A stretch of 64,000 nucleotides of DNA from Hyphomicrobiales bacterium (lineage in GTDB: Bacteria; Pseudomonadota; Alphaproteobacteria; Rhizobiales; OSC116), in contig NVUH01000005.1 of assembly GCA_002401855.1 (NCBI GenBank), positions 69,969 through 133,968 of the forward strand, written 5' to 3'. Shown here in pieces: positions 5,898 through 58,270 of the stretch. Made by a program: the position numbers and the translations under genes. Position 1 is the first letter of the stretch. Every line of letters starts with the position of its first letter. The notes beneath the pieces are model-generated. The model searched no databases, was not told the origin of the DNA, and worked only from the letters and a program-made list of their open reading frames with translations.

Positions 5898-6500
5898 CCA
5901 AGCAGCCGCACCACCAACCTGCCTCACCCGAACCACCCGCCGCTTGTTCACACAACAAACTCAGAATTTCGTATGTCCTCGTTTCCACGCAAAGATCATT
6001 TCAGTGAGCGCGACAGCGGCCGTTCGAAGCCGCTGCCGTCTAACGCGCGGTCGGCTAGAGAGCGAAGCGAACGCACGCAAGTGTCAACAGCATGCCGAAA
6101 GGCGTGCGTATAAATGAAGTACCCGAGTACAGGCAGGACAGCTAACTTTCTTAGTGTCTTTGCGGCGGCAAATGCAGGTTCATTGTTTGAGATTCCTGCG
6201 CAAACTTTCTAGCTCACAACTTTTCAGCCATCATTGGGCAGTCTCATGCCTAAGCTCTGGAAGTCTGCATTTTCACGTTCGGCTTAAGCCTCTCTGTTAG
6301 CACTTGCGTGCGCTCCACATGCTTCGCATGCTGCGCTAGCCGACCGCGCGTTCGTCGGCAGCGGCTTCGAATGGCCGCTGTCGCGTTCACTGACATGTAT
6401 GGGAGTTGTGGAAACGAGGGCATACGAAATTCTGAGTTTGTTGTGTGAACAAGCGGCGGGTGGTTCGGGTGGGGCAGGTTAGTGGTGCGGCGGCTTTGGG
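5898..6500. repeat. Repeat-family locus A: ~600-bp long hairpin element filling the ubiB/recR convergent gap
   Basis: Perfect 51-nt inverted repeat 5925-5975 vs 6421-6471. The arms continue inward for roughly 190 nt each with few mismatches. Contains core-like GAGAGCGAAGCGAACGCACGCAAGTG (6057-6082) and junction CTCTGGAAGTCTGCA (6255-6269). Confidence 0.95.
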
Positions 6501-6526
6501 CTAGCTAGAAACTCAGAATTCGCTTC

Positions 6527-7132
6527 CTAAAACGGTTTCCGTGCCTTAACCGCCGCGCTCAACGTGCCTTCATCAAGATAATCCAGCTCACCACCGACAG
6601 GCACGCCATGCGCCAACATGGTCACTTCAACATCGCATAATTCAAGCGCATCAGTTAAATAATGGGCGGTGGTTTGCCCATCAATCGTAGCGTTCAGCGC
6701 CAACAAAACCTCTTTAACCTCAGGGTCAGCCGCACGCTCAACCAATTTACTAATATTCAATTGCTCAGGCCCAATGCCATCCAATGCCGATAATGTACCG
6801 CCCAGCACCAAATATGTACCCTTTATCGCATTCGCCCGCTCCAGCGCCCACAGGTCAGCCACATCCTCAACCACACAAATCACATCTTTGGTGCGTTTAG
6901 GGTTGATGCAAATGGCACAAGGATTATTGACATCCAAATTGCCGCATTCACTGCAAGTGTCAACACGCTCAGCAGCATCTTCGGCCGCACGTGCCAACGG
7001 CCGCAACAACTGTTCTTTTTTCTTTATCAAGTGTAAGGTGGCACGCCGCGCAGACCGCGGCCCAAGCCCAGGCAGTCTAGACAATATCTGTATCAGTCGT
7101 TCAATTTCAGCCCCTGCTTTATGCCCGCTCAT
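6527..7132 (-). CDS. recR: Recombination protein RecR
   Basis: 201 aa. LPGLGPRSA helix-hairpin-helix, Cys4 finger [16 protein letters not shown], Toprim region [10 protein letters not shown]. Confidence 0.95.
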
Positions 7133-7141
7133 ATATTTTCC

Positions 7142-7477
7142 CTAAAAACCCAGATTCATACCTTCAGGCAATTGCATATCACCCATAATTTCTTTGGTTT
7201 TTTCGGCCACCATAGCTTCGGCTTTGCCTTTGGCATCATTATGCGCCGCCATAATCAGGTCTTCCAAAACCTCGCCTTCGTCTGGCGAAAGCAAACTTGG
7301 GTCAATCGTCATGCCTTTAATCAACCCCTTGCCAGACAAGGTAATTTTAACCATGCCGCCGCCCGATACACCTTCGACCATCAACAATTCAATCTGGCTC
7401 TGCATTTCAGCCATTTTGGCCTGCATCTCTTGGGCTTGTTTCATCATCTTGCCCATATCACCCATTTTTCCAAACAT
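7142..7477 (-). CDS. ybaB: Nucleoid-associated protein YbaB/EbfC
   Basis: 111 aa, MMKQAQEMQAKM...VEGVSGGGMVKITLSGKG. Sits in the conserved dnaX-ybaB-recR order. Confidence 0.9.
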   Translation of the reverse strand: MFGKMGDMGKMMKQAQEMQAKMAEMQSQIELLMVEGVSGGGMVKITLSGKGLIKGMTIDPSLLSPDEGEVLEDLIMAAHNDAKGKAEAMVAEKTKEIMGDMQLPEGMNLGF

Positions 7478-7485
7478 AATATGTC

Positions 7486-9483
7486 CTAATCTAAATCATC
7501 AAATTTAATAATTTTCTCAATGCTCGCGCCATCAAATTGCGCCAATGTATATTTAATCAACTCTTCTTGGCTAAATTTCTGCACTTCAGCCGCAAACCGC
7601 GCCAATTCTTGCTCTTGCAAGGTCGAGCTAGCGGCACTTTGTGCTTTAACATCAAAAGTAACCAGCCAATCTTCACCCGTCCATTGTTCAAGCAATGTCA
7701 TCAATTGCTTGGGCAAGTTTTTATCGGCTTGTGGTAACGGTTTTAGATGTATTTCGCCAATTTTATAAGAAATCAGCAACACCTCATGGCGCAATATGCG
7801 GCGCAATAAAAGCTCGCGCTGCTTGCCCACCAACGCAACTAAATCTTCAAAATTGGTCGGGCTATATATATAATGGTCGCCATCACTGGCTGCCAGCTGG
7901 CTAACATCGGCTTCAGCATGACCAAATTCGGCCGCATCTTCGTCAGAAACATCGTAAAAAGCTGCATCATCGTCAGTTGCATCACCATGATCCATCGATA
8001 GGTTTTCAGCATATTGATCAAAACTATTGTCAAACCCATCTTCTTTAACATCTGGTTGCGGGTGCAAGGCCACAACATTATTTGCAGGCTTTTTTTCAAC
8101 AATTTCAATCTCTGGTGCAACTTGCATTTGCACAGCTGCATTCGAATTTTGCGGAAAGCTTAGCATATTGGTCGGCGCACCACTTGTTTGCGGCGCTATC
8201 GATTTTGTAGACTGTGCATTAGAATTGCCGCCATTTGGAGCCGCAGGCGCGGCTTGCGCAGCAGGTGCTGAATCCACAGTTGGCGCTGGCTGTCCCATTA
8301 ACTTCTTAATCACATCATCAGGGTTAGGCAATTGCGCACCATAACCCAAGCGAATCAACGCCATTTCTGCCGCAGCAAACGGTTTGGGCGCATTTTTCAC
8401 TTCTTCCATGCCTTTAAGCAGCATTTGCCAAGCTTTGGCCAAACTGCGCATCGATAATTTAGCAGCAAACTCATTGCCCTTATCATGCGCCTCTTTCGAC
8501 CAAACATTATCTTGTAAATTCGGAATGACTTTAAGCCGCGTGATCCAATGGCTAATCTCAGCCAATTCGGCCAAAATCCGCGAGGGGTCAGCACCTTCAT
8601 CATATTGGTTTTTAAACTCAGCCAACGCCTCAGGCAATTTGCCTTGCATTAAATTCTCAAACAGATCAAAAATCCGCATTCTATCGGCAATGCCCAGCAT
8701 TTGGCGGATATTCTCATCCGTCACACCATCTTTCGCCCCGCCAGACATAGCAATCGCTTGGTCAAGAATAGACAAACCATCACGCGCCGAACCTTCGGAA
8801 GCTTGCGCGATGATGCTCAGCGCATCATCAGACACTTTAACGCCTTCTTTGCCAGCAATTTTAGCAAACAAGTCTTTTAGCTGGTTGGCATCAATGCGCC
8901 GTAAATCAAACCGCTGGCAACGCGACAACACGGTCACAGGAATTTTTTGAATCTCAGTGGTGGCGAAAATAAACTTCACATGTTCAGGCGGCTCTTCCAG
9001 CGTTTTGAGCAAGCCATTAAACGCCGCCGTGGTCAGCATATGCACTTCGTCAATAATATAAACTTTATAGCGCGCGTTGACAGGCTTATAACGCACCGAT
9101 TCGATAATCTCGCGAATGTCGCCAATGCCTGTGCGCGATGCAGCATCCATCTCAAACACATCAATATGGCGGCTGTCCATAATGTCTTGGCAGTGAATGC
9201 CCAACTCGGGCATAATGGTGGTCGGTTTATCAATCTTGCCATCGGCAGTTTCATAATTTAGCGCCCGCGCCAAAATACGTGCCGTTGTGGTCTTACCAAT
9301 GCCCCGCACACCTGTGAGAATATAAGCTTGCGCAATACGCCCCGATTCAAACGCGTTTTGCAGCGTTTGCACCATAGAATCATGACCAATCATATCGTCA
9401 AAATTATGCGGCCGATATTTACGCGCCAAAACCTGATAGGCTTCAGTTTTTTTAGGCTCAGTTTTTGGCTTATCGTCGCTCAT
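7486..9483 (-). CDS. dnaX: DNA polymerase III subunits gamma/tau
   Basis: 665 aa. YRP..F.DMIGH, Walker A GVRGIGKTTTARILA, DEVHML, low-complexity A/P/Q linker, tau C-terminal domain. Confidence 0.95.
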   Translation of the reverse strand: MSDDKPKTEPKKTEAYQVLARKYRPHNFDDMIGHDSMVQTLQNAFESGRIAQAYILTGVRGIGKTTTARILARALNYETADGKIDKPTTIMPELGIHCQDIMDSRHIDVFEMDAASRTGIGDIREIIESVRYKPVNARYKVYIIDEVHMLTTAAFNGLLKTLEEPPEHVKFIFATTEIQKIPVTVLSRCQRFDLRRIDANQLKDLFAKIAGKEGVKVSDDALSIIAQASEGSARDGLSILDQAIAMSGGAKDGVTDENIRQMLGIADRMRIFDLFENLMQGKLPEALAEFKNQYDEGADPSRILAELAEISHWITRLKVIPNLQDNVWSKEAHDKGNEFAAKLSMRSLAKAWQMLLKGMEEVKNAPKPFAAAEMALIRLGYGAQLPNPDDVIKKLMGQPAPTVDSAPAAQAAPAAPNGGNSNAQSTKSIAPQTSGAPTNMLSFPQNSNAAVQMQVAPEIEIVEKKPANNVVALHPQPDVKEDGFDNSFDQYAENLSMDHGDATDDDAAFYDVSDEDAAEFGHAEADVSQLAASDGDHYIYSPTNFEDLVALVGKQRELLLRRILRHEVLLISYKIGEIHLKPLPQADKNLPKQLMTLLEQWTGEDWLVTFDVKAQSAASSTLQEQELARFAAEVQKFSQEELIKYTLAQFDGASIEKIIKFDDLD

Positions 9484-9591
9484 TTAATTTCCAGATATTT
9501 TGGCTGCATTCCATATAGTAAACGGGACGCAGAAAATACGCAAAAGGATAATGCCTATATAAGGAACAAATATAGGAAAAAAAGGAAAAAA

Positions 9592-9685
9592 GGAAACTGG
9601 ACAATAACCCATGAAAGATTCGTTGTGGCTGCTTCCTTCCGGATCTGACCAGATTGGCGAAAGACACGTCCATCGCCAGCTTCCC
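9592..9685 (-). ncRNA. ffs: Signal recognition particle RNA (4.5S, small bacterial type)
   Basis: Minus strand reads CUGGUCAGAUCCGGAAGGAAGCAGCCACAACG, the conserved SRP domain IV motif. 5' GGAAGCUGG pairs with 3' CCAGUUUCC (one G-U). UUCG/CGAA and CGUG/CAUG inner pairings. A U-rich tract follows. Classic position just upstream of dnaX. Ends are approximate. Confidence 0.85.
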
Positions 9686-9727
9686 ATTGCCTATATGATA
9701 CATTGAACACTAAAATACAAGTATTTT

Positions 9728-10594
9728 TTAAACAGAAGTAAAGTTATTACGGTAATCATTACGCCTATAAGTGCCAAAAATCTTGATATTGGTGGTAAAA
9801 AACTCAAGTTCTTCCAGTGCCAAAGTCACGCTTTTCTGATCAGGGTGGCCTTCAATTTCGGCATAAAACTGCGTGGCGCTAAAATTACCTTCAACTTGGT
9901 AGCTTTCGAGCTTAATCATATTCACCCCATTGGTGGCAAAACCGCCCAAACCTTTATAAAGCGAGGCAGGCACATTGCGCACGCGGAATAAAAAACTGGT
10001 AATCATTGGTCCGTCATCGGCATTAAATTTGGCTGATTGGCGCGAGAAAACCACAAAACGCGTTGTATTATGCGCCGCATCTTCAATATTTTCGGCCAAT
10101 ATATTCAACCCATAAATATCAGCGGCAATCTTGGGCGCAATGGCAGCTTTTGTGCCGTCTTTCCATTCTGCAACCAACCGCGCACTACCAGCCGTATCGG
10201 CGGCGACATGAGTTTTAAAACCATGTTTTTGAATAAAATTACGGCATTGCGGCAGGCAAACAATATGGCTGTAAACATCGGTAATTTCTTCAAGCTTCAC
10301 TCCATCAAGCGCCATTAGATGAAAGCGGATCGGCAAAAAATATTCGGCAATCATTTTTAAATCACTATTCGGCAATAAATGGTGGATATCCGCCACCCGC
10401 CCTGCCAAGCTATTCTCAATCGCAATCATCGCCAAATCGGCTTTGCCATCTTCAACCGCTTTAAACGCCAAATCAAAACTATCGCAGGGCAATACCTCCA
10501 TATTGGGGTAGGCTTGTTGGCAAATAATGTGGGAATTTGCCCCAACTTCACCTTGAAACGCAATGATTCCTTTTTGGGTCTTACTCATAGTCAC
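9728..10594 (-). CDS. pheA: Prephenate dehydratase
   Basis: 288 aa. IAFQGEVGANS, NTTRFVVFS (TRF motif), C-terminal ACT-like regulatory domain. Confidence 0.85.
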   Translation of the reverse strand: MTMSKTQKGIIAFQGEVGANSHIICQQAYPNMEVLPCDSFDLAFKAVEDGKADLAMIAIENSLAGRVADIHHLLPNSDLKMIAEYFLPIRFHLMALDGVKLEEITDVYSHIVCLPQCRNFIQKHGFKTHVAADTAGSARLVAEWKDGTKAAIAPKIAADIYGLNILAENIEDAAHNTTRFVVFSRQSAKFNADDGPMITSFLFRVRNVPASLYKGLGGFATNGVNMIKLESYQVEGNFSATQFYAEIEGHPDQKSVTLALEELEFFTTNIKIFGTYRRNDYRNNFTSV

Positions 10595-11499: not shown

Positions 11500-11635
11500 A
11501 TGGCACCTAGTTTACGGCATAGCGGCAAACTCGCGAAAGCTTTAGATGATGAAGCCAATTGGGGTGCCGAATTAGCACAATTAAGGCGGCTGAGTGGCTT
11601 AGCAAGCGATGCGGAGCATCGCGCACGCAGTGGCC
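11500..11635 (-). repeat. Repeat-family locus J (half element, inverted orientation)
   Basis: Contains GGGGTGCCGAATT and GCGGCTGAGTGGCTTAGC plus a degenerate core GATGCGGAGCATCGCGCACGCAGTG. These match the reverse complement of the left half of loci C, E and F. Confidence 0.8.
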
Positions 11636-11643
11636 AATATAAA

Positions 11644-12630
11644 GTGGCCCAATATAGAAAGAACAACACGATCAGCATTCTCATCGCATCATTAAAACAG
11701 TCCAACATCAGCTGGTATAACGGCTTCAAAGCCATAGCCCCCAAAGTCGGCATAGACCCCAATGAAATCGAATATTGGCCACATGTTGCCGACCCAAGCA
11801 AAGTCGAATATTTAGCCGTGTGGAAACCGCCATATGACATATGCGCCCAACTGCCCAATGTGAAAGTAATCTTTAACCTCGGCGCCGGCGTCGACCATTT
11901 ACTACTAGATGACAGCCTGCCGCCAAACATCCCGATTGTACGGGTGGTTGATGACAATTTAACCCGCCGTATGGGAGAATATGTTTTACTGCAAGTGCTT
12001 TATCACCTGCGTGAAATGCCAAAATTACGTGTGGCACAAGCCGCACATGAATGGCCAGAGCAATATGACCCCGATGCTGTCGATGTCAGTGTTGGCATTA
12101 TGGGCTTGGGCGAAATTGGCGGCCATTGCGCAGCACTTGTGCAGCAAATGGGGTTTAAAACCTTGGGTTGGAGCAATAGCGTTAAAAATATTACGGGCGT
12201 TAAATCTTATGCTGGTCTTGACCAATTGGATGAGTTTTTGGCTGAAACCGAGATTTTGATCAACATATTACCACATACTGATGCCACCAATAAATTGGTA
12301 GATTACCAACTATTGCAAAAACTAAAATCTGATGGCGGCTTGCAAGGCGCTACCTATGTTGCGGCAGGGCGCGGTAAAACTCATGTCGAAACTGATATTG
12401 TGCAGGCGCTTAAAGATGGTTGCCTGAAATCCGCCTCGATGGATGTGTTTGAGCAAGAGCCCCTTGCCGCCGATAGCCCCTTATGGGATTTGCCTAACGT
12501 GGTCATCACCCCGCATAATGCTGCCACTTCTGACCGACAAACAGTCAGCGAGCAAATATTGACGCAAATTGCCAACCATAGAAATGGTTTGCCCTTACAA
12601 AATATAGTGGATTTAACCAAAGGCTATTGA
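11644..12630 (+). CDS. D-isomer-specific 2-hydroxyacid dehydrogenase (glyoxylate/hydroxypyruvate reductase A-like)
   Basis: ORF 11500..12630. NAD fold GIMGLGEIGG, catalytic-domain motifs, ITPHNAA. The first 48 codons of the track ORF are repeat sequence, so GTG 11644 is the proposed start (uncertain). Confidence 0.75.
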   Translation: MAQYRKNNTISILIASLKQSNISWYNGFKAIAPKVGIDPNEIEYWPHVADPSKVEYLAVWKPPYDICAQLPNVKVIFNLGAGVDHLLLDDSLPPNIPIVRVVDDNLTRRMGEYVLLQVLYHLREMPKLRVAQAAHEWPEQYDPDAVDVSVGIMGLGEIGGHCAALVQQMGFKTLGWSNSVKNITGVKSYAGLDQLDEFLAETEILINILPHTDATNKLVDYQLLQKLKSDGGLQGATYVAAGRGKTHVETDIVQALKDGCLKSASMDVFEQEPLAADSPLWDLPNVVITPHNAATSDRQTVSEQILTQIANHRNGLPLQNIVDLTKGY

Positions 12631-17444: not shown

Positions 17445-17580
17445 AAGCACCACAATTCGGCACTTCTGGAGATCTCCTCTGAACCCGAAGGGTGAAGCAA
17501 GGCCAAGCGGCCGTCGCCGTTAGGCGCAGCAAGCAAACGGAGTTTGCGCACGCAGTGCTAAGCATAAGTGCAGAATTTCG
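17445..17580 (+). repeat. Repeat-family locus B (shortened right-half element) inside the def-fmt spacer
   Basis: AATTCGGCAC, ACCC-GAA-GGGT, GGCC-AAGC-GGCC, GTCGCCGTTAGGCG and a degenerate core ...GCGCACGCAGTGCTA match the right half of loci C, E and F. Also contains the palindrome GGAGATCTCC (17467-17476). Confidence 0.85.
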
Positions 17581-18544: not shown

Positions 18545-19130
18545 ACCCACTAACTGTTTTTTTGCGGCCTATACGGGGAAGCATCCTGCCAGCGCTCTGG
18601 AAGTTTGCATTTTTGTTTGGCACTGCGTGCGTTCGCTCCGCTCTCTAGCTAAGCCACTCAGCCGCTGGTCGGAGGCAAATTCGGCACCCCAATCAACTAC
18701 ATTACGCTTAGTGAGCTAGAGTTTGGAGAAGCTCCGAGTATAGGTGCTATATAATTTACTCATTGTGCTTTTCATGGAAAAAGAGTCCGAAGCCTTTGGC
18801 TGAGGCAAGCGCGACCGCGCGTCGCCGTTAGGCGTGGCAAGAGAGCGGAGCGAACGCACGCTAGTGCTAACAGAGAGGCGAAGCCGAATGAAAAAATGAG
18901 ACTTCCAGAGCTTAGGCAGGAGCGCTACCCGGTATAGGCTGTAAAAAGACAGTTGGCTGGTAGTTGAGGCTCTGGAAGTCTGCTCTTATTTCGTTCGCGG
19001 CTATTCTTCGCTTTGCTCAGGCCTACACGGGTGCGCCACATAAGTGGCGGCCTCCAGTTCGGCTGGCTCTAAAAACACATGAGTTTTTAGAGCAAGAGGT
19101 GTACTGAAAGGTTGCGGCTGGGGTGCCGAG
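18545..19130 (+). repeat. Repeat-family locus C (full mosaic element plus extra modules) between fmt and ftsK
   Basis: Junction CTCTGGAAGTTTGCA 18595-18609. Core GCACTGCGTGCGTTCGCTCCGCTCTC 18620-18645. Inverted core 18841-18867. Inverted junction 18897-18910. Second junction 18970-18983. Extra hairpin CTCTAAAAAC/GTTTTTAGAG 19067-19092. Confidence 0.95.
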
Positions 19131-23780: not shown

Positions 23781-23951
23781 GGGCACTCTAAACAAAATGA
23801 AACGATTTTGAGCTACAACCACGCAACTCTCACGGTCTCAAGCTACCAAACTAGAGTTAAGAGCAGGTTAAAAAGACGAGCTAAACTTGCAGATATGTGA
23901 ATAAAATGATTAAAACTTGAGTGAAACGAGTTAAATAAATTAACTTTATAT

Positions 23952-24320
23952 GTTCGGCTTCGCCTCTCTTTTTATCGTTCGCGTTGCTCTCTATAAGCAC
24001 TAGCGTGCGTTCGCTCCGCTCTCTTGCCACGCCTAACGGCGACGCGCAGTCGCGCTTGCCTCAGCCCAAGGGCTTCGGACCCTTTTCCCATGATATGCAG
24101 TATAGTACCAAGCAGCAAACTCCGAATTTGTTGGGGCGCACCGAAATACGGAGTTTCACCAAACTCTAGCTAACTTAGCTTAATGAAGTCACGTTGGGTG
24201 GTGAATTCGCATCCGATCAGCGGCCGAGTGGCTTAGCTAGGGAGCGGAGCGAACGCACGCAGTGCCAAACATAATGCAAACTTCCAGAGCGTTGGCAGTA
24301 GCGCTATACTGCTTGCTCGG
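23952..24320 (-). repeat. Repeat-family locus D (full element, central module inverted relative to C, E and F)
   Basis: Core 23997-24023. Inverted core 24240-24265. Inverted junction TGCAAACTTCCAGAG 24275-24289. The central ~215 nt is the reverse complement of the C/E/F centre. Confidence 0.95.
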
Positions 24321-24822
24321 AATATAGCTGTTTGGCACGGCCTAAATCTATTTCGAGGCTGAATTCTAAAAAATAACCTAGCTGCCAATTCTGAGTTTTG
24401 ACGGCTTGTTTGTTGATGGCTTTGTCCCATGATGGGTAAACTCGTATGCCGTTTTTGCCGCGTTTTTGGGTGGTCGATATTATGCCGTGTTTGGCTAAGG
24501 CTGTTTTGGGGAAGACGAATTGTCCGAATTTATCGCCATTGGCGCAATTGATGACCAGTAGATCAAACTTGTCATCTATATGCTGTGGTTGGGTGATGCC
24601 TTGTTGATCGCGCTGCCAAATGGCGACAAATTGGCCGATTTTCTTTGGGGTGATTTTGGCGGTGCGGGTGATGATTGTGAGTTGGTTTAATTTATATGTG
24701 CCTGCGCCATATTCGTTGCTTTCTTTATCTTTAGTCGCATGTGAGATTGTGAAATTTAATGGTTGATAGAGCTGTTTCTGAATAAAACTGAGATTTTGGC
24801 TGAATATTGTTTGGTTGGACAT
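24304..24822 (-). CDS. Hypothetical protein, possibly MepB-like
   Basis: 172 aa. KKIGQFVAIWQRD... resembles my recollection of MepB-family proteins; not verifiable here. The last codons and the stop lie in repeat D sequence. Confidence 0.4.
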   Translation of the reverse strand: MSNQTIFSQNLSFIQKQLYQPLNFTISHATKDKESNEYGAGTYKLNQLTIITRTAKITPKKIGQFVAIWQRDQQGITQPQHIDDKFDLLVINCANGDKFGQFVFPKTALAKHGIISTTQKRGKNGIRVYPSWDKAINKQAVKTQNWQLGYFLEFSLEIDLGRAKQLYSEQAV

Positions 24823-26714: not shown

Positions 26715-26737
26715 AAATCTTTAATTCTTAAAGTAAA

Positions 26738-26767
26738 AGCACCGAGTTTCTCGGTGCTTTTTTTTTG
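26738..26767 (+). terminator. Rho-independent terminator of ftsZ
   Basis: AGCACCGAG-TTTC-CTCGGTGCT followed by a 9-nt T-run. Confidence 0.85.
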
Positions 26768-26770: not shown

Positions 26771-27345
26771 AATGTTTGGCACTGCCTCTTTATGTTTGGC
26801 ACTGCGTGCGTTCGCTCCGCTCTCTAGCTAAGCCACTCGGCCGCTGATCGGATGTGAATTCGGCACCTAAGTTGACCTCATTAAGCTAAGTTGGCTGGAA
26901 TATGCCGACATTCTGAGTTTCGGTGGTATCCTTGTTGATGCTCTGGAAGTTTGCATTATATTTGGCACTGCGTGCGTTCGCTCCGCTCTCTAGCTAAGCC
27001 ACTCAGCCGCTGATTGGATGTGAATTCGGCACCCCAATCAACTAAATTACGCTTAGTGAGCTAGAGTTTGGAGAAGCACCGAGTATGGGTGCTAAACTGC
27101 TACTCATTGTGCTTTTCTTGGAAAATATGCCCGACCCCGTAGGGTGAGGCAAGGCCGACTGGCCGTCGCCGTTAGGCGTGGCAAGAGAGTGGAGCGAACG
27201 CACGCAGTGCTACTAGCTCACCGATAGGTGGGCGAAAAAGAGAGGCGAAGCCGAACGAAAAAATGTAGACTTCCAGAGCTTAGGCAGGAGTGCGACCCTA
27301 GTATAGGCTGTAAAAAGACAGTTAGCTGGTAGTTAGGGCTCTGGA
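26771..27345 (+). repeat. Repeat-family locus E (truncated copy followed by a full copy, in tandem)
   Basis: Cores at 26799-26824 and 26965-26990. Inverted core 27185-27210. Junctions 26941-26955 and 27329-27343. Inverted junction 27264-27278. ATGTTTGGCACTGC is duplicated at 26772 and 26792. Confidence 0.95.
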
Positions 27346-27390
27346 AGTTTGTACTTTTCCTGATATGGTGCGGGTGGGAGACTTATATAG

Positions 27391-48564: not shown

Positions 48565-48985
48565 ATTTTCTGAGTTGGTTGTAAATAGACAGTTGGCTGG
48601 TCGTTGAGGCTCTGGAAGTTTGCATTTTTTCGTTCGGCTTCGCCTCGCTTTTTATCGTTCGCGTTGCTCTCTATAAGCACTAGCGTGCGTTCGCTCCGCT
48701 CTCTAGCTAAGCCACTCAGCCGCTGGTCGGATGCGAATTCACCACCCCAATCAACTACATTACGCTTAGTAAGCTAGAGTTTGACGAAGCACCGAGTATA
48801 GGTGCCATATAATTTACTCATTGTGCTTTTCGTGGAAAAAAAGCCCGAACCCGTAGGGTGAGGCAAGCGCGACTGCGCGTCGCCGTTAGGCGTGGCAAGA
48901 GAGCGGAGTGAACGCACGCAGTGTTTATAGAGAGCAACGCGAACGACAAAAGAGAGGCGAAGCCGAACGTAAAAATGCAGAGACA
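48565..48985 (+). repeat. Repeat-family locus F (full element) between lepA and the LacI gene
   Basis: Junction 48610-48624. ~82-nt inverted arms (48621-48703 vs 48899-48980, ~90 percent complementary by eye) carry the core at 48677-48703 and the inverted core at 48899-48923. ~195-nt centre. Confidence 0.95.
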
Positions 48986-48987
48986 CA

Positions 48988-52867: not shown

Positions 52868-53824
52868 ATGAAATTTTCGACTAAATTACTAGGGGCTGTT
52901 GCTGGCCTCGCAATGGCTGTATCATCAGGCGTTGCATCTGCTGAACCCCATACAATGGGTGTATCTATCCCGACTGCCGACCATGGTTGGACAGGTGGTG
53001 TAAACTATCATGCACAAGTGACTAAAGAGCGTTTGGAAGCACTTTATCCAGACCTTAAAATTGTGTTGGTAACCGCTGCTGACCCAACTTCACAAGCTAA
53101 TGACTTGGAAGACCTTGTGTCTATTCATAAAATTGAAGCTTTGGTTATTTTGCCAACAGACGGTGGCCCGCTTACTGAGCCTATCCGTGATGTTAAAGCT
53201 TCAGGTGCAACCATTACAGTGGTTGACCGTAGCTTGACTGATAATTCACTTGTTGACATTTATGTGGCTGGTAACAACCCTGAATTGGGCACAACATCGG
53301 CTAAATATATGGCTGAACATATGAATGGTACGGGTAACATTGTGATCTTGCGCGGCCTGCCTATTTCTATTGATGAAGAACGTTTTGACGCTTTCATGGC
53401 TGAAATTGGTAAGAGCAGTGGCATTACAGTGCTTGATAATAAGCATGCTAACTGGAACCGTGATGATGGCTTTACAGTGATGCAAGATTTCTTGGCGCGT
53501 TTCCCTAAAATTGATGGCGTATGGGCGCAAGATGATGACATCGCGCTAGGTGTGATTGAAGCGGTTAAAGAAGCTGGCCGTGAAGATGAGCTATTTATTG
53601 TTGGCGGTGCTGGCATGAAAGAAATGGTTAAACGGGTTATGGATGGTGATAAATTGGTGCCTGTTGATGTGCTATATCCGCCTGCGATGATTGCAACGGC
53701 TATGGAGATTACTGCATTGCAATTCGTTTCTGGTGCACCTGTTGAAGGTACGTTTATTGTGGGTTCGCCTTTGATTACACAAGAAAATGCTGCTAAATAT
53801 TATTTCCCAGACTCTTTGTTCTAG
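52868..53824 (+). CDS. Periplasmic sugar-binding protein (RbsB-like)
   Basis: Signal peptide MKFSTKLLGAVAGLAMAVSSGVASA after GGGAGGG. Type I periplasmic binding fold. Confidence 0.85.
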   Translation: MKFSTKLLGAVAGLAMAVSSGVASAEPHTMGVSIPTADHGWTGGVNYHAQVTKERLEALYPDLKIVLVTAADPTSQANDLEDLVSIHKIEALVILPTDGGPLTEPIRDVKASGATITVVDRSLTDNSLVDIYVAGNNPELGTTSAKYMAEHMNGTGNIVILRGLPISIDEERFDAFMAEIGKSSGITVLDNKHANWNRDDGFTVMQDFLARFPKIDGVWAQDDDIALGVIEAVKEAGREDELFIVGGAGMKEMVKRVMDGDKLVPVDVLYPPAMIATAMEITALQFVSGAPVEGTFIVGSPLITQENAAKYYFPDSLF

Positions 53825-53849
53825 GATTTAAGGTTAGTTACGAGTTTAG

Positions 53850-53882
53850 ATGCCTGAGGCGAAAGCCTTGGGCATTTTTTTT
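53850..53882 (+). terminator. Rho-independent terminator of the ABC operon
   Basis: ATGCCTGAGGC-GAAA-GCCTTGGGCAT followed by an 8-nt T-run. Confidence 0.8.
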
Positions 53883-53884
53883 GC

Positions 53885-54045
53885 GGCTAGCTCTGAACTT
53901 CAGTACAGCACTCGTATCCAAATAACGTGCCATACAGTGAGCGCGACAGCGGCCGTTCGAAGCCGCTGTCGTGCTCGCTGAAATGGCCTTTGTTTGGAAA
54001 CGAGGGGTAGATAGAAACTCTGAGTTTGCAGTTTTGGAAGTTTAT
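53885..54045. repeat. Repeat-family locus G (outer-arm module of locus A)
   Basis: 19-bp stem CAGTGAGCGCGACAGCGGC (53935-53953), loop CGTTCGAA, GCCGCTGTCGTGCTCGCTG (53962-53980). Flanks match the locus A arm (CCTCGTTTCC, AAACTC(A/T)GAGTTT). Confidence 0.85.
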
Positions 54046-54061
54046 TGTTGACTCTCGGTAT

Positions 54062-54093
54062 TTATCAATTATGTTAATTAACAATAATGATAA
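54062..54093. promoter_or_regulatory. AT-rich imperfect palindrome upstream of an ArsR-family gene
   Basis: Perfect 12-bp core TGTTAATTAACA (54072-54083) within TTATCAATTATGTTAATTAACAATAATGATAA. Confidence 0.4.
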
Positions 54094-54108
54094 ATAAGGT
54101 TTCGCATT

Positions 54109-54423
54109 ATGCAGCTCGCAAATACATTTTCAGCATTAGGTAACGCCACGCGCTTTGCTATTGTTGAGCGTTTGCTTAACGAAGGTGAATTGCCAGCTGG
54201 GGCATTTCTGGATATGAATGGTGTTTCGCCACCTGCTATGTCGCGCCACTTTAAAGTGTTGCGTGAGGCGGGGATTGTTAAGCAGCGGATTGATAAACAA
54301 CGGCGGATATATTCGGTGCGGCCGCAAGCGGTGCAGCAGATTAGTGACTGGTCGATAAGTTATCGGAAGTTCTGGGAAAGCGGGCTTGATCGGTTGGCGC
54401 TGGCTTTGAGTGAGGATGTTTGA
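54109..54423 (+). CDS. ArsR/SmtB-family transcriptional regulator
   Basis: 104 aa. FSALGNATRFAIVERLL...PPAMSRHFKVLREAG. Confidence 0.85.
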   Translation: MQLANTFSALGNATRFAIVERLLNEGELPAGAFLDMNGVSPPAMSRHFKVLREAGIVKQRIDKQRRIYSVRPQAVQQISDWSISYRKFWESGLDRLALALSEDV

Positions 54424-54863
54424 TGGAAGATGGTATTCTAATCTTGGAGCGTACTTTTGATGCGCCGCCTTATAAAGTGTTTGATTATGTGACGAAGAAA
54501 GAAAATCTACTTAAATGGTGGGGGCCAGAAAATTGTTATGTCGATGATAATGATTTGGACTTTACCATGGTTGGGCCGTATTTTTTTGTGATGGTGGCGC
54601 CTAATGGTGCTAAGGCCAAAGTGAGTGGCAAGGTGCTTGCCGTCAACCCGCCTTATATGGTTGAATTTAATATGTCGATGCCGGGTGATGAAGACTGTTT
54701 ACGCATGAGTGTGGTTAAATTTAAATTAGCTGCAAATGATGCGGGTGGGACAGATTTTACGCTTACACAAAGCGGGCTTACCAGTGAAGAGATTACCTTT
54801 AACCGTACTAATGGTTGGGTATCCACCCTTGCCCGTTTAGAAAAATTATTGAAAGAAACTTAA
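54420..54863 (+). CDS. SRPBCC/AHSA1-domain protein
   Basis: 147 aa. ERTFDAPPYKVFDYVT....LLKWWGP. 4-nt overlap with the arsR-type gene, which is the common ArsR-SRPBCC pairing. Confidence 0.75.
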   Translation: MMEDGILILERTFDAPPYKVFDYVTKKENLLKWWGPENCYVDDNDLDFTMVGPYFFVMVAPNGAKAKVSGKVLAVNPPYMVEFNMSMPGDEDCLRMSVVKFKLAANDAGGTDFTLTQSGLTSEEITFNRTNGWVSTLARLEKLLKET

Positions 54864-54895
54864 ACTAACCCCCAAAAGTAAAAAAGGATGAAAAA

Positions 54896-55225
54896 ATGGA
54901 CGAATTTGCAATTATATATGTGGGTCAAGGCACGCCTGACAAAATGCCAAAGACTAAAGAAGAAGGCATGGCGCACCGCCAGAAATGGATGGAATGGGTC
55001 GCAAGTCTTGGTGATGCTGTGGTTAGCCCCGGCCAGCCGATGATGGAGCATAAATTGGTTTCCTCTGAAGGCGTTTCAGACGTTGCCGAGGATGAGAAAT
55101 TTACTGGCTTTGCTGTGGTGAAAGCCGAAAATATTGAAGCGGCGATTAAAATTGCCAAATCTGACCCATTTTTAAACATGGGCGGCGGCGTGCAAGTGGC
55201 CAAAATGATGAAAATGCCAGGTTAG
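54896..55225 (+). CDS. Small cytoplasmic protein, possibly YciI-like
   Basis: 109 aa. ...FTGFAVVKAENIEAAIKIAKSDPFL..GGGVQV resembles the YciI-like fold C-terminus. Weak call. Confidence 0.4.
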   Translation: MDEFAIIYVGQGTPDKMPKTKEEGMAHRQKWMEWVASLGDAVVSPGQPMMEHKLVSSEGVSDVAEDEKFTGFAVVKAENIEAAIKIAKSDPFLNMGGGVQVAKMMKMPG

Positions 55226-55240
55226 GAAAAAGGTGGATTT

Positions 55241-55606
55241 ATGAAATTTATTAAAACCGAAAATATCCCCCTTTGGGTGACATTATTAGCGATGATTTTG
55301 GCACTTTCGGGCATGGGTCTGGGTATTATGAGCTTGCTTGGCCCTGTGCCAGACGCGCCGCAAATTACGCCTTATTTGGGTGGTAGATCGTTTGGTGTGG
55401 GTGTGGTATTTGGCTTTGCTGTGCTGCTTAAAAGCCCAGCCACTTATATTGCGGCTTTTGTTGCAGGTGCTGCACGTGAAATTGGCGATGTGTTTGGTGA
55501 GCTTACAACAGCTGTACCGAGTATGGGTACGGTTGCTGTAGAGCTTGTTATTGCAGTGATTTGCTTATTTGCAGCTTATTTGGCAAACAAGGCTAGAAAA
55601 GCCTAG
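55241..55606 (+). CDS. Hypothetical membrane protein
   Basis: 121 aa, four hydrophobic helices. No family recognised. Confidence 0.5.
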   Translation: MKFIKTENIPLWVTLLAMILALSGMGLGIMSLLGPVPDAPQITPYLGGRSFGVGVVFGFAVLLKSPATYIAAFVAGAAREIGDVFGELTTAVPSMGTVAVELVIAVICLFAAYLANKARKA

Positions 55607-55635
55607 CTAACAATTAAAACCCATATGAAGTTAGA

Positions 55636-55664
55636 ATGCCTAAGCTTGCTTAGGCATTTTTTTT
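55636..55664 (+). terminator. Terminator hairpin overlapping the 3' end of the convergent hydrolase gene
   Basis: AATGCCTAAGC-TT-GCTTAGGCATT followed by a T-run. The same bases encode ...YIKKNA-stop on the minus strand. Confidence 0.7.
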
Positions 55665-56474
55665 GATGTAGGCAGCGATGAATGCTGCCAGTGGTTCATC
55701 GCGCAAGATGCGTTTGTGGCCTAGGCCTTGGGTTGCATGAAACTCACCATTTGGCCAGTTTTTTTGCAAATTGGTAAATTCGGAAAATGGGATTTCTTTG
55801 TCATTTTCGTCATGGATAATTAGCGGCAATCTGGCTTTATATATATCACTATTGATTAGGCTAATAGAATCGACGGTGTGTTGGGTTAGTGCGTTTAACT
55901 TATCTAGCATCAGCTTTTGTGCTTTAAGTGATAAGTGAATGGTGGCAAAATATTTGTTAAATACGGTGCGTATATTGGTTGGCGCGGATATGAAGACCAG
56001 AATTTTAGGTAATGTTATATATTTATGTAATAAGCCGATGATGGCGCCACCCATAGAGTGGCCAATATAGGCTGCAGGCTTTAAGTCTTGTGATGCTAAA
56101 TCTTCGATTAAGGCCAAAGTCATGCTTAAAATTTGTGTTTTGGTGCCTGGTGAGGCGCCATGGGCAGGGGCGTTCCAGCCAATAACTTGATAATTTTGGG
56201 CTAATAATGCCCGAATGATGACATGAAATTGAGTGCCGCGTGATTCCCAGCCATGGCATAAGAATATAAGCGGGGCAGCTGGGTCACCCCAAAGGGTGGC
56301 GCGTCTGCCGCTGCTAAATGTGAGCTGTGTGCCTTCATTAAACAAAGCCAGCTCTTGCTCATTTCTGTCAAATTTACGCGGTCTGCTGAATAGGCTCAAC
56401 GCTAGGTTTGCTGCCATATTGGGCGAGGTGGTGGAGAGAATATTTATGAATGTGGGAATGTATTTTCTGAGCAT
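55650..56474 (-). CDS. Alpha/beta hydrolase
   Basis: 274 aa. HGWESRG, nucleophile elbow GHSMGG, C-terminal GLGHKRIL. Confidence 0.8.
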   Translation of the reverse strand: MLRKYIPTFINILSTTSPNMAANLALSLFSRPRKFDRNEQELALFNEGTQLTFSSGRRATLWGDPAAPLIFLCHGWESRGTQFHVIIRALLAQNYQVIGWNAPAHGASPGTKTQILSMTLALIEDLASQDLKPAAYIGHSMGGAIIGLLHKYITLPKILVFISAPTNIRTVFNKYFATIHLSLKAQKLMLDKLNALTQHTVDSISLINSDIYKARLPLIIHDENDKEIPFSEFTNLQKNWPNGEFHATQGLGHKRILRDEPLAAFIAAYIKKNA

Positions 56475-56552
56475 ATGTGTATCAATTATGGGGGGCCTGA
56501 TTGATTGGTTATTTTTGAATATAGTTATTAAATGCTTAAAACTTCAATAAAT

Positions 56553-56652
56553 TGCCATGCAATAACTGCATGGCAGGGTTTCGATAATGGTGCTTTTCAA
56601 TAAAAAAATATTATCTATATTGGCGTTAACAGGGAGCGATGCTCCACAATAT
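56553..56652 (+). promoter_or_regulatory. Leader/promoter module of DUF1127 cassette 1
   Basis: Palindrome GCCATGCA-N5-TGCATGGC (56553-56573). TTTTCA-N16-TATATT (56593-56620). Hairpin GGAGC-GAT-GCTCC (56632-56644). TATATT/AATATA complementarity. Confidence 0.45.
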
Positions 56653-56675
56653 AACACCATTTATGGAGAAGAAAC

Positions 56676-56861
56676 ATGGCTTTATTTACAGCGAATAAAA
56701 ATGCAAAATCAAAAAAATCAACTGGTCTATTGGCTAGATTTAATGAATCGGCTAAATTGCGCCGTGCTGAAAAAGCATTGCTTAAATTAGATGATCGCAT
56801 GCTTTCTGACATTGGTGTGTCTCGCGGTGATGTTCATGGTAAAGTTTGGGGCCAATTCTAA
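56676..56861 (+). CDS. DUF1127 small protein (paralog 1)
   Basis: 61 aa. KLRRAEKALLKLDDRMLSDIGVSRGDV matches the DUF1127 signature (R-rich helix + LSDRxLxDIGxxRxD). RBS GGAGA. Confidence 0.85.
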   Translation: MALFTANKNAKSKKSTGLLARFNESAKLRRAEKALLKLDDRMLSDIGVSRGDVHGKVWGQF

Positions 56862-56909
56862 ACCTAACCGCTAATAATTAGATGCGCAAATTTTTTATAG
56901 GATAAAAAC

Positions 56910-57074
56910 ATGGCTTATATTACACATACGGATGAACTAAAAACAACTTCATCTATCTTTGCTAAGATTTCTAAATTCTTGAAGAGTGTTGGAAATTCTT
57001 TTATACGGGCGCAAGAAGCTCGGGCGCGTCAACATGTTAAAAAATATATGACCAAAAGCTATAAACCTTTTTAG
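56910..57074 (+). CDS. Possible 54-aa basic peptide co-transcribed with DUF1127 paralog 1
   Basis: Manual ORF (below track cutoff): MAYITHTDELKTTSSIFAKISKFLKSVGNSFIRAQEARARQHVKKYMTKSYKPF. AGGA lies 8 nt upstream. The only terminator follows it. Confidence 0.3.
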   Translation: MAYITHTDELKTTSSIFAKISKFLKSVGNSFIRAQEARARQHVKKYMTKSYKPF

Positions 57075-57113
57075 GTTGTTGCTAAGAATTTTGGTTAAAG
57101 TGTATTTTAAAAA

Positions 57114-57143
57114 GCCTTTCACGATTGTGAGAGGCTTTTTGTT
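57114..57143 (+). terminator. Rho-independent terminator after cassette 1
   Basis: GCCTTTCAC-GATT-GTGAGAGGC followed by TTTTT. Confidence 0.75.
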
Positions 57144-57163
57144 TGTGAAGATATTATGACGCT

Positions 57164-57279
57164 AGCTATGCAATGAATGCATGGCTGGTGCGTTATAACT
57201 GTGCTTTTCATCATGGCTTAGAGTGCCTATATATAAGTTATTAGATGAGCAAGGGCTCTTCTTATTTGCCAAATATAGG
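57164..57279 (+). promoter_or_regulatory. Leader/promoter module of DUF1127 cassette 2
   Basis: Palindrome AGCTATGCA-N5-TGCATGGCT (57164-57186). TTTTCA-N17-TATATA (57205-57233). Hairpin GAGC-AAGG-GCTC (57247-57258). CCTATAT/ATATAGG (57226-57232 / 57273-57279) overlaps the AGGA RBS. Confidence 0.45.
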
Positions 57280-57288
57280 ATTAATATC

Positions 57289-57474
57289 ATGGCTTTATTT
57301 ACATTGACAAAAACAGACAAAACTAAAAAAACTACCGGCTTTATTGCAAAATATAGCGAAACTGCTAAATTGCGCCGCGCCGAAAGAGAATTGAATAAAA
57401 TGAGTGATCGTATGCTTGAAGATATTGGTGTATCTCGCGGCGATGTGCACGGTAAAATTTGGGGTGAGTTCTAA
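57289..57474 (+). CDS. DUF1127 small protein (paralog 2)
   Basis: Start moved to internal ATG 57289 (MALFTLTKTDKTKK...). KLRRAERELNKMSDRMLEDIGVSRGDV. Confidence 0.85.
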   Translation: MALFTLTKTDKTKKTTGFIAKYSETAKLRRAERELNKMSDRMLEDIGVSRGDVHGKIWGEF

Positions 57475-57510
57475 GAACTAACCTAACCAACAGCCGAATA
57501 TAGTTTCTGA

Positions 57511-57546
57511 AGCCTTCTGATATTTTTAATGTCAGAGGGCTTTTTT
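57511..57546 (+). terminator. Rho-independent terminator after cassette 2
   Basis: GCCTTCTGA-N11-TCAGAGGGC followed by TTTTTT. Confidence 0.75.
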
Positions 57547-57556
57547 GTTGGTTAGA

Positions 57557-57715
57557 TTTATGTTTGGCCCCTGCGGGCACAACACATCCGTGTTGCTTGC
57601 TAAGCCACTCAGCCGCTGGTCTTATTGTTTATTCACCACCCCATTTAGGCTCATTATTTTACGTTGAGTAGAGTTTGGCGAAATACCGCATGTTGGTGCT
57701 ATACGGATATTCGGG
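57557..57715 (+). repeat. Repeat-family locus H (left-half variant)
   Basis: ATGTTTGGCC..., variant core with hairpin GCACAACAC-ATCC-GTGTTGC, then GCTAAGCCACTCAGCCGCTGGTC, ATTCACCACCCC, GAGTAGAGTTTGG. Confidence 0.85.
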
Positions 57716-57746
57716 ACTGGTTAGGGTGTGTCGGTTAAATTTTGGG

Positions 57747-57861
57747 GTCATGTAATAAATGCATGGCTGGTGTGTTGTAACTGCGCTTTTCATTGTGGGG
57801 TGGATTGCCTATATATAGGTTGTTAGACGGAACAAGGGTTCCTCTTATTGCTACATATAGG
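57747..57861 (+). promoter_or_regulatory. Leader/promoter module of DUF1127 cassette 3
   Basis: Palindrome GTCATGTA-N5-TGCATGGC (57747-57767, two G-T positions). TTTTCA-N17-TATATA (57787-57815). Hairpin GGAAC-AAGG-GTTCC (57829-57842). CCTATAT/ATATAGG (57808-57814 / 57855-57861). Confidence 0.45.
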
Positions 57862-57870
57862 ATTAGTATT

Positions 57871-58056
57871 ATGGGTTTATTTACATTGACGAAAACAGAA
57901 ACAACTAAAAAATCAGCTGGCTTTATCGCAAAATATAGCGAAACTGCTAAATTGCGCCGCGCTGAAAAAGAATTGAATAAAATGAGCGATCGTATGCTTG
58001 AAGATATTGGTATATCTCGCGGTGATGTTCATGGTAAAGTTTGGGGTTCTTTTTAA
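57871..58056 (+). CDS. DUF1127 small protein (paralog 3)
   Basis: Start moved to ATG 57871 (MGLFTLTKTETTKK...). 52 of 61 residues identical to paralog 2 by my count. Confidence 0.85.
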   Translation: MGLFTLTKTETTKKSAGFIAKYSETAKLRRAEKELNKMSDRMLEDIGISRGDVHGKVWGSF

Positions 58057-58087
58057 GAATAACCAACAGCCGAATATAGTTTCTAAA

Positions 58088-58121
58088 GCCTTCTGATATT
58101 ATAATGTCAGAGGGCTTTTTT
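58088..58121 (+). terminator. Rho-independent terminator after cassette 3
   Basis: GCCTTCTGA-N9-TCAGAGGGC followed by TTTTTT. Confidence 0.75.
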
Positions 58122-58132
58122 GTTGGTTGGTT

Positions 58133-58270
58133 TTATGTTTGGCCACTGCGTGCGCAACACATCCGTGTTGCTTGCTACGCCTAACGGCGACGGCCAGTCG
58201 GCCTTGCCTCAGCCTAAAGGCTTCGGATTTTTTCCCTCGAATGGTTTTACTCATCGCATGGTGAATGAGA
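58133..58270 (-). repeat. Repeat-family locus I (variant core + inverted right-half module)
   Basis: ATGTTTGGCCACTGCGTGCG, hairpin GCAACAC-ATCC-GTGTTGC, then TACGCCTAACGGCGAC-GGCC-AGTC-GGCC-TTGCCTCAGCCTAAAGGCTTCGG, the reverse complement of the right half of C, E and F. Confidence 0.85.

Follow-up and report, generated by a model that had tools for sequence, protein, structure and literature searches.

The 64,000-nt stretch of contig NVUH01000005.1 analysed here (positions 69,969 to 133,968; assembly GCA_002401855.1, a Hyphomicrobiales bacterium; hereafter the window) carries in its intergenic spacers a family of mosaic repeats whose building block is an 80-150-nt unit with short covarying stem-loops, rather than a long hairpin. 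The elements are non-coding, and we judge that they probably constitute an apparently undescribed, lineage-specific, non-autonomous dispersed repeat superfamily, akin to the repetitive extragenic palindromic (REP) sequences and bacterial interspersed mosaic elements (BIMEs) and similar to the REP doublets forming hairpins (REPINs), with the mobiliser encoded elsewhere. An earlier note, made from the letters of this DNA alone, had described ten loci (A to J) as comparable in concept with BIMEs, Rhizobium-specific intergenic mosaic elements (RIMEs) and miniature inverted-repeat transposable elements (MITEs), and this concept of a dispersed, modular, intergenic family is supported. The family works most like REP/BIME/REPIN systems, yet it lacks the defining properties of REPs, MITEs, integron attC sites and invertons and has no counterpart in Rfam.

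The ten loci are real family copies, and self-BLAST of the window marks repeated DNA at every one of them (5900-6496, 11546-11648, 17481-17567, 18550-19014, 23945-24298, 26784-27358, 48577-48981, 53911-54028, and parts of 57168-57712 and 57750-58241). These repeats total about 2.9 kb, or about 4.5% of the window, in agreement with the 3 kb first estimated; the only other self-matches are a 34-38-nt pair (19063-19096/54059-54096) and an unrelated DUF1127 gene duplication (56675-58241). Repeat finding links loci A, B, C, D, E, F, G and I through long direct and inverted relations. The 26-nt core, originally credited with nine well-conserved and about six degenerate copies, was recovered in the same numbers: six gap-free copies with at most three mismatches (none expected, and no match in shuffled sequences), three copies with a 1-nt insertion (GCACTAGCG...) at about 18855 (minus), 23998 (plus) and 48678 (plus), and six degenerate ones at 6072 (minus), 6301 (plus), 11622 (minus), 17547 (minus), 57568 (plus) and 58144 (plus). 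The junction 15-mer is present, as proposed, in both orientations, with eight copies at one mismatch or fewer against none expected and none in shuffles.

All loci except G are made of units in which a conserved head is followed by one of three tails, X, Y or Z, anchored on CACTGCGTGCG. The head comprises, in order, approximately TTATGTTTGG, a first hairpin (hp1; GCAC-TGC-GTGC or GCCC-CTGC-GGGC), a second hairpin (hp2) and CT(T/A)GC. When complete, hp2 is a perfect stem of 6-7 bp whose sequence can be almost anything, closed by a (C)TCC loop, and in about 75% of units it is cut down to a 2-bp remnant, TTCGC-TCC-GCTCT, which is the commonest form. The X tail consists of a nearly invariant 22-nt box (CTAGCTAAGCCACTCAGCCGCTG) and about 100 variable nucleotides, the Y tail of three further stem-loops of 3-6 bp, the first two with conserved loops (TAAC and AGTC), and the Z tail of a 9-bp stem-loop. 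A full element is an X unit and a Y unit, inverted and tail to tail (C, D, F and the right part of E), and what had been taken for two complementary halves, X and Y', are instead two different unit tails. Among 33 full elements from the window and related genomes, the core-to-core spacing falls into two classes, 194-200 and 207-218 nt. The left part of E and the whole of J, B, H and I are solo units; the last four are single units with no obvious loss of a palindrome partner. Locus A is a larger palindrome with two Z units, and optional arm modules (the junction 15-mer and CGTTCG...CTC inserts) together with extra units produce composites of 350-850 nt. With a covariance model (CM) built from Y units, the window contains exactly 15 units, and there is no other hit at E <= 1: six Y (84-93 bits), seven X (19-37 bits) and two Z (16-22 bits). 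The ten loci are the following.

Locus A, 5898-6500, no strand assigned: composite palindrome of about 600 nt between the 3' ends of a ubiB-like gene (+) and recR (-); Z units at 5991-6085 (minus, CM 21.5 bits) and 6299-6380 (plus, 15.9 bits); junction module 6255-6269; inverted arms 5893-5988/6408-6503 (96 nt, 93%) and 5997-6071/6323-6397.
Locus J, 11553-11634, minus strand: solo X-type unit (CM 31.2 bits, E = 3.9e-6) with a full hp2, GCGATGC-TCC-GCATCGC; neighbours cytochrome c (+) and 2-hydroxyacid dehydrogenase (+).
Locus B, 17481-17559, minus strand: solo Y-type unit in the def-fmt spacer (CM 83.8 bits); hp2 GCAAAC-TCC-GTTTGC.
Locus C, 18550-19014, plus strand: full X+Y doublet with outer arms, after which a second element begins but is truncated; sited between the convergent 3' ends of fmt (+) and ftsK (-); junctions 18595-18609 and 18970-18984; X 18619-18698 (plus, 34.5 bits); Y 18789-18868 (minus, 88.7 bits).
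Locus D, 23945-24298, minus strand: full doublet in reverse orientation with a long centre of 216 nt; Y 23996-24075 (plus, 91.8 bits); X 24187-24266 (minus, 35.4 bits); junction 24275-24289; sited upstream of an aminotransferase gene and downstream of mepB.
Locus E, 26784-27358, plus strand: composite of a solo X unit and a full doublet, 3' of the ftsZ terminator (26735-26761) and 5' of a Sir2-family gene; X 26798-26877 (plus, CM 37.0 bits), X 26964-27043 (plus, 33.4 bits) and Y 27133-27211 (minus, 93.4 bits); junctions 26941-26955, 27264-27278 (minus) and 27339-27353.
Locus F, 48577-48981, plus strand: full doublet with inserts in both arms, in the spacer where lepA (+) and a lacI-family gene (-) converge with their 3' ends; junction 48610-48624; X 48676-48756 (plus, 33.9 bits); Y 48847-48925 (minus, 86.0 bits).
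Locus G, 53911-54028, no strand assigned: stand-alone palindrome of the Z-tail module only, headless and coreless, with no CM match; stem-loop GACAGCGGC...GCCGCTGTC with outer arms; 62 nt at 82% in common with A; inverted match to 6356-6392.
Locus H, 57557-57712, plus strand: solo X-type unit (CM 57567-57652, 18.6 bits, E = 0.004) 3' of the second DUF1127 copy; hp1 GCCC-CTGC-GGGC; hp2 CAACAC-ATCC-GTGTTG.
Locus I, 58133-58241, plus strand: solo Y-type unit (CM 58142-58223, 85.2 bits) 3' of the third DUF1127 copy and convergent with prmA; hp2 stem the same as in H, hp1 of the GCAC type, Y tail.

Locus G lacks the core and is tied to the family only by the Z-tail module that it has in common with A. 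A small protein or type I toxin encoded in the centre of the elements was considered and rejected, given that the short open reading frame (ORF) is unconserved and that start codons and frame vary between copies through indels. The sole recurrent 'protein' cluster in the loci corresponds to spurious ORFs running through the repeats.

The hairpin-forming character attributed to the family holds, in the form of short local stem-loops that covary strongly. The fold of element F has z-scores of -17.6 (top strand) and -14.1 (bottom strand) relative to shuffles. Two compensated stem types, GCAC/GTGC and GCCC/GGGC, alternate in hp1, and at least eight unrelated perfect 6-7-bp stems surround the one conserved loop of hp2. 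Five stems enclose the TAAC loop of hp3 (CGCC/GGCG, CGGGC/GCCCG, CGCGC/GCGCG, CGCCC/GGGCG and CGTCC/GGACG), and hp4 alternates between GCGC/GCGC, GGCC/GGCC and GGCT/AGCC. In an alignment of 41 Y units, 81.9% of the paired cells hold standard pairs versus 66.5% in shuffled alignments (0 of 500 reach the observed value) and at most 52.9% in slid controls, and the covariation score is 0.286 versus 0.090 (0 of 500; slid controls at most 0.151). Aligning 76 Y units to the model gives a score of 0.241 versus 0.065 in shuffles (0 of 500) and at most 0.108 in slid controls, with changes on both sides in 12 of the 16 pairs. RNAalifold independently recovers hp1, hp3 and hp4. The long stem of 30-190 bp that the arms had been thought to form behaves differently, showing 29 uncompensated one-arm changes and no compensated one; the two arms are alike because both are copies of one head. 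Structure in the X tail was also sought and rejected, with RNAalifold giving invariant pairs only: X is conserved as sequence, without a covariation-supported fold. Likewise, the canonical hp2 does not appear to be a recombinant of two true hairpins, both putative parents (TTCGC-TCC-GCGAA and AGAGC-TCC-GCTCT) being absent from 96 loci.

To place the family among other genomes, related loci were retrieved by an exact 19-mer scan with one genome per species, dozens of tiles being among the matches listed. The family is dispersed, as the earlier note supposed, and is not a local duplication: dozens of loci at 70-87% identity occur in at least seven other related Hyphomicrobiales-like assemblies. 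The carriers include at least five species-level metagenome-assembled genomes (MAGs), namely NORP194, NORP83 ('OCS116 cluster'), DT_99, tPB_Alph1 and binchicken_co53_175, as well as two metagenome scaffolds. BLAST aligns the window elements over up to 642 nt, at 70-87% identity, with at least 65 tiles of five MAGs, and single 19-mer matches in unrelated phyla show no further similarity by the same method. Elements in the related tiles measure 42-843 nt with a mode near 350-450 nt, and the covariance model finds 76 Y units in 518 kb of related DNA.

The host is an uncultured marine or subseafloor Hyphomicrobiales-like alphaproteobacterium close to NORP194. Window proteins are 92-99.7% identical to those of this MAG, scaffold L088 (ENA, sample SAMN07571232) is 99.84% identical to the window over 5 kb, and the closest named relatives of Fmt, from Maritalea and Cohaesibacter, reach 61-67% identity. 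According to Pfam, the approximately 55 window ORFs are all chromosomal housekeeping genes, including ubiE, ubiB, recR, ybaB, dnaX, def, fmt, ftsK, ftsZ, recN-like, ligA, lepA, uvrD-like, prmA and ABC transporter genes. No mobilising gene had been noticed in the window, and the Pfam search of these ORFs agrees, yielding no transposase, integrase, Y1/HUH protein or REP-associated tyrosine transposase (RAYT); nor was a Y1 (HUH) transposase seen among repeat-bracketed genes in 87 related tiles.

The family had not been recognised as a described one, and the Rfam scan that had been suggested gave no family match. At the gathering threshold the signal recognition particle (SRP) RNA is the sole Rfam match in the window, and a scan of locus C at E <= 10 returns only noise (at most 20 bits versus thresholds of 66-184). 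Collections of plasmids, phages and viral contigs contain no family match. A scan of JGI metagenomes with the pattern CACTGCGTGCG-N13-16-CTTGCTA, which covers a subset of the units, retrieved 24 contigs, none of which contains a real unit by the covariance model.

Using an ORF heuristic for the gene contexts of the related loci, we classified 47 clusters, 22 of which lie between convergent genes, 23 between co-directional ones and 2 between divergent ones. A gene 3' end adjoins 45 of these 47 clusters and all ten window loci, every one of which is intergenic. Units show no orientation bias relative to the direction of flanking genes. They are biased with respect to GC skew, and the skew of the window genome does not depend on gene strand. 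Of 50 X units, 39 are on the G-rich strand, as are 20 of the 24 solo X units (p = 0.0015) and only 2 of the 10 solo Y units.

Orthologous sites reveal turnover of the elements. When the window is compared with NORP194, identity is 93-94.5% in the flanking genes and 70-79% in the elements that occupy the same sites, which also differ in their modules. The sites of F (lepA/lacI), D and E are filled in the window, NORP194 and NORP83, and the module make-up differs in arm inserts gained or lost, in a core deleted between GAGAGC direct repeats, in a short or long centre, and in nested Z modules in NORP83. The orthologous sites of F (L058 and L061) illustrate such differences in module make-up, and orthologues of D are found in L022 (NORP194), L018 and L002. 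H and I are tandem duplicates with a common hp2, X versus Y tails and one compensated hp1 pair between them, and in locus L039 hp2 is a hybrid, each of its arms matching a different variant. These head and tail swaps, the hybrid hp2 and the module differences indicate that copies exchange sequence often, instead of drifting slowly where they sit. Such comparisons show that resident copies are reshuffled, apparently by recombination or gene conversion between them, and that they also change, apparently by slippage between short direct repeats. At the D-orthologous site of binchicken_co53_175 (L002, about 1500-1990) we observed a solo, perfectly conserved 26-nt core and nothing else of the element; the next 500 nt or so are non-coding and AT-rich and include TATCCACA.

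The def-fmt spacer, which holds locus B in the window, was compared across relatives.

Window: 177 nt, one Y unit.
L093 (Fmt 96% identical to that of the window): 254 nt, two tandem Y units with a different hp2 stem.
L094 (Fmt 78%): 149 nt, one Y unit with the orientation and hp2 of the window; hp3 and hp5 compensated.
L095 (Fmt 79%): 21 nt, empty.
L096 (Fmt 68%): 3 nt, empty.

This turnover bears on the reading of the elements as classical MITEs, i.e. internally deleted derivatives of cut-and-paste insertion sequences (ISs) whose core and arms act as terminal inverted repeats for a transposase encoded elsewhere. Long inverted arms, sizes of 350-600 nt, a high copy number and no coding capacity suit such an origin, and so does the breaking of MAG contigs by the elements, many NORP83 and tPB_Alph1 contigs ending in them. 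We nevertheless consider it unlikely, since the outermost ends vary by copy and by orthologous site, with modules added or missing on either arm, and solo and tandem units are common in the family. No target-site duplication is seen, the filled and empty def-fmt spacers being too diverged to be decisive, and neither an IS with these ends in the 96 loci nor a transposase in any fetched locus was found; the one recombinase that turned up is a Pin-like invertase with sites of its own. Furthermore, the stems covary within each arm, which is needless for a double-stranded transposase-binding site.

A second explanation for inverted cores around a centre of fixed size (195 or 215 nt) is an invertible switch, modelled on Hin/hix or on the Mpi-controlled promoters of Bacteroides, in which a serine invertase acting in trans would cross over at the cores and so flip the ~200-nt centre. 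It gains some appeal from NORP194, where a Pin-like invertase gene sits inside an A-type palindrome. We regard the switch as very improbable: the orientation of the centre is constant at orthologous sites (F in three genomes, D in two), the siting at gene 3' ends, with 22 of 47 clusters convergent, would leave a promoter without a target, solo units cannot invert, and the invertase has inverted repeats of its own. The serine invertase was also rejected as mobiliser or parent of the family; it is an ordinary Pin-like enzyme with its own 22-bp repeats and adjacent TbpB-like genes, about 70% identical to homologues of Roseibium, Phaeobacter and Cohaesibacter, and the family repeats merely flank the cassette. 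The perfect 22-bp inverted repeat (ATCAAAAGGCTTCCCTTTTGTA) lies upstream of the invertase gene (L047 1-1400, NORP194; L090 700-3770; L091). In L090 and L091 the invertase is paired with TbpB-like lipoprotein genes, an arrangement that resembles a phase-variation cassette; NORP194 lacks the surface-protein genes, and its invertase gene lies within the A-type palindrome.

Under the preferred reading, a trans-acting factor encoded elsewhere in the genome would recognise the units as folded single strands. As units are oriented with GC skew rather than with the direction of genes, this single strand would probably be DNA that becomes exposed at the fork during replication. New copies would be tolerated only in spacers abutting a gene 3' end, where insertion is presumably harmless. 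Recombination among copies would make the mosaics and could rearrange the chromosome, and any effect on expression, for instance through RNA hairpins at 3' ends, would be a side effect or a secondary co-option.

Several observations weigh against this reading. No mobilising enzyme was found in the window or in about 0.5 Mb of related loci, and RAYTs are reported to be rare in Alphaproteobacteria (PMC5581495). We saw no target-site duplication or sharp end, and the only empty sites belong to relatives whose divergence prevents an alignment across the junction. At about 78%, the orientation bias is of moderate strength; in the nine cases where skew and gene direction are in conflict, X goes with the skew seven times, a result without significance by itself. 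Because the related loci were found via the canonical core, the frequencies of variants are biased. Taken singly, the short hairpins have marginal thermodynamic stability, with an RNAalifold consensus energy of -1.43 kcal/mol. Spacers filled across several genera fit a selected host function and gene-converted old insertions equally well. Finally, the X-sense (top) strand folds better in 23 of 31 elements (p = 0.003); the top strand is usually G+T-rich, and this preference therefore does not separate RNA, DNA and compositional explanations. Strand choice by G-U pairs and folding energy, which favours the top strand, was discarded as confounded with the G+T skew.

Some of these points would be expected if the elements had a cis-acting or small-RNA function, being stabilisers of 3' untranslated regions, processing sites, attenuators or independent small RNAs that selection keeps at fixed intergenic sites, with spread secondary. 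The strong covariation of short stem-loops with invariant loops, the siting beside gene 3' ends, the better folding of the X-sense strand and the spacers filled across genera with compensated stems, as in def-fmt of the window versus L094, all accord with such a role, and the junction module plus TATRTT forms a sigma-70-like match before some X units (e.g. 26935-26962). We still hold it to be rather unlikely as the main explanation. Orientation is unrelated to flanking genes, the solo units J and B being antisense to operons and H and I sense, and about half of the clusters lie between convergent genes. An own promoter or terminator was rejected for the units, matches to promoter and terminator consensus being no more frequent than in shuffles and missing from most copies. 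Rfam provides no match, hp2 is lost in about three quarters of units, and the consensus folding energy is negligible.

A further possibility, which we put forward tentatively, is that an undiscovered system of Alphaproteobacteria, specific for single-stranded structures, uses the units as its recognition modules. A dedicated protein other than a RAYT may read the short hairpins in a row, whose conserved loops are TGC, TCC, TAAC and AGTC and whose stems are free, and may have either the replication fork or the 3' ends of transcripts as its site of action. If this were true, the occupancy of spacers across genera and the covariation would reflect a host function beyond selfish spread.

Comparison with known systems places the family nearest to the REP/BIME/REPIN elements of Gammaproteobacteria and their RAYT/TnpA-REP enzymes. 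Both are extragenic, high-copy and located after gene 3' ends; both have several unit subtypes (Y, Z1 and Z2 in E. coli; X, Y and Z here) and take the form mainly of inverted doublets, beside solos and mosaic clusters with conserved linkers; and a single-stranded structure is what is recognised in the former and, as covariation and the replication-strand bias suggest, probably in the present family too. The 33 core-to-core doublets at 194-218 nt, with fold z-scores of -14 to -18, correspond to REPIN doublets, and, as in BIMEs, each locus and each orthologous site has its own combination of X, Y and Z units with junction modules and arm inserts. A REP is defined by a GT[AG]G or CGTC tetranucleotide 0-2 nt 5' of its hairpin (PMC6006769, PMC3733652). 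In the 4 nt 5' of hp1 of 141 units we counted TTTG 27 times, CTTG 12, ATAA 12 and others, with GTAG 0, GTGG 3 and CGTC 0. REPs also differ in having one fully paired basal stem of 7-20 nt with a 2-5-nt loop, in contrast with 3-5 stem-loops of 3-7 bp here: the stems of hp1, hp3 and hp4 measure 3-5 bp, and hp2 reaches 6-7 bp in only about one quarter of units. The present family has no GT[AG]G/CGTC tag, its units measure 80-150 nt and its elements 350-850 nt, and no RAYT was found in the window.

The CGTC-tagged REPs of Alphaproteobacteria come from the same class of bacteria, are mostly head-to-head dimers without a known associated transposase gene and, as here, sometimes have small stem-loops in their spacers (Di Nocera et al. 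2013, PMC3733652). They are characterised by the CGTC tag, an 8-9-bp stem starting with A/T pairs, a 4-5-nt loop and a CCA tail (PMC3733652). These features are absent from the heads of our units; some Z tails do have CGTC and a 9-bp stem, but with a 6-8-nt loop. A likeness in host exists with the mosaic elements of rhizobia: like the family described here, RIME1 and RIME2 belong to Hyphomicrobiales and are intergenic, mosaic and large palindromes. They were reportedly described by Osteras et al. in 1995 as Rhizobium-specific intergenic mosaic elements, large palindromes of 109-183 bp. Element F has no BLAST match among 72,556 plasmids, presumably with the Sinorhizobium megaplasmids among them, which is an indirect test of RIME similarity only.

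BOX elements of Streptococcus pneumoniae are likewise modular, consisting of boxA, boxC and boxB in variable number, and form long hairpins through their complementary ends. Like the Correia- and ERIC-type MITEs, they occur in transcribed intergenic DNA and have no known mobiliser. All three have unrelated hosts and sequences and fixed ends, Correia and ERIC with TA target duplications, in contrast with the variable ends and the covarying short internal hairpins of the present family. Integron attC sites, such as the Vibrio cholerae repeats, resemble the units in a structure conserved over a varying stem, in the presence of GCCTAAC/GTTAGGC and in an expected activity as single strands. They differ in that TAAC is here the loop of a 4-5-bp hairpin, not part of the R''/R' duplex, and in that the copies lie between housekeeping genes (def, fmt, ftsZ, lepA) with no cassette array and no integrase found in the window.

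A good understanding of REP-type repeats is confined to cases with a known RAYT, and Alphaproteobacteria harbour abundant repeats without a known mobiliser. The family described here offers many copies in several genomes and three unit types, and covariation shows which parts are read as structure, making a search for the partner protein testable. It also matters for MAG assembly in this clade, where many contigs end in elements and elements coincide with synteny breaks, possibly chimeric joins, and for annotation, given that the repeats yield spurious ORFs of about 90-130 aa and misplaced start codons, as for fmt here.

Synteny of the window breaks at C (18901, where L088 diverges) and at the left edge of D (about 23945). 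The two loci bound a 5-kb ftsK-aminotransferase block whose neighbours are unlike those in relatives: L088 and L093 run from fmt into dcd, and NORP194 has the order ddl-ftsQ-ftsA-[element]-mepB-ftsZ, in contrast to the window, where this division and cell wall (dcw) cluster is cut at D. GC skew turns from negative to positive at about 24 kb; a replication origin at this switch was considered and rejected, there being no DnaA-box cluster. The break at C and D is either a repeat-mediated rearrangement or a chimeric assembly join. A mis-joined or rearranged window would be in keeping with the view that the family is an artefact of assembly noise or a segmental duplication limited to this region; the chance of this is negligible, and it is already contradicted by the presence of the family in independent assemblies from different projects, samples and gene contexts.

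A MepB-like gene and a repeat element (L022 2137-3060 in NORP194; window 23945-24822) are inserted between ftsA and ftsZ, an adjacency that is otherwise very conserved.

In the fmt region, both the longest ORF (GTG 17492) and the gene call in L088 (GTG 17555) begin inside unit B. Comparison with L093-L096 puts the probable real fmt start at a TTG at about 17603, after GGAG. Downstream of fmt in L095, a relative without the family, five tandem copies of a 21-nt unit (GACGATGTGAAGTAAAAATA) occur at 3460-3560.

The DUF1127 duplication near H and I comprises three tandem paralogues of a 61-aa protein (56676-56861, 57289-57474 and 57871-58056), which recur about every 580-610 bp. A terminator and a single repeat unit come after copy 2 (unit H) and likewise after copy 3 (unit I), and an unassigned 54-aa ORF (56910-57074) comes after copy 1. 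The SRP RNA matched by Rfam is a bacterial small SRP RNA gene at 9588-9685 on the minus strand (49.5 bits), adjoining dnaX.

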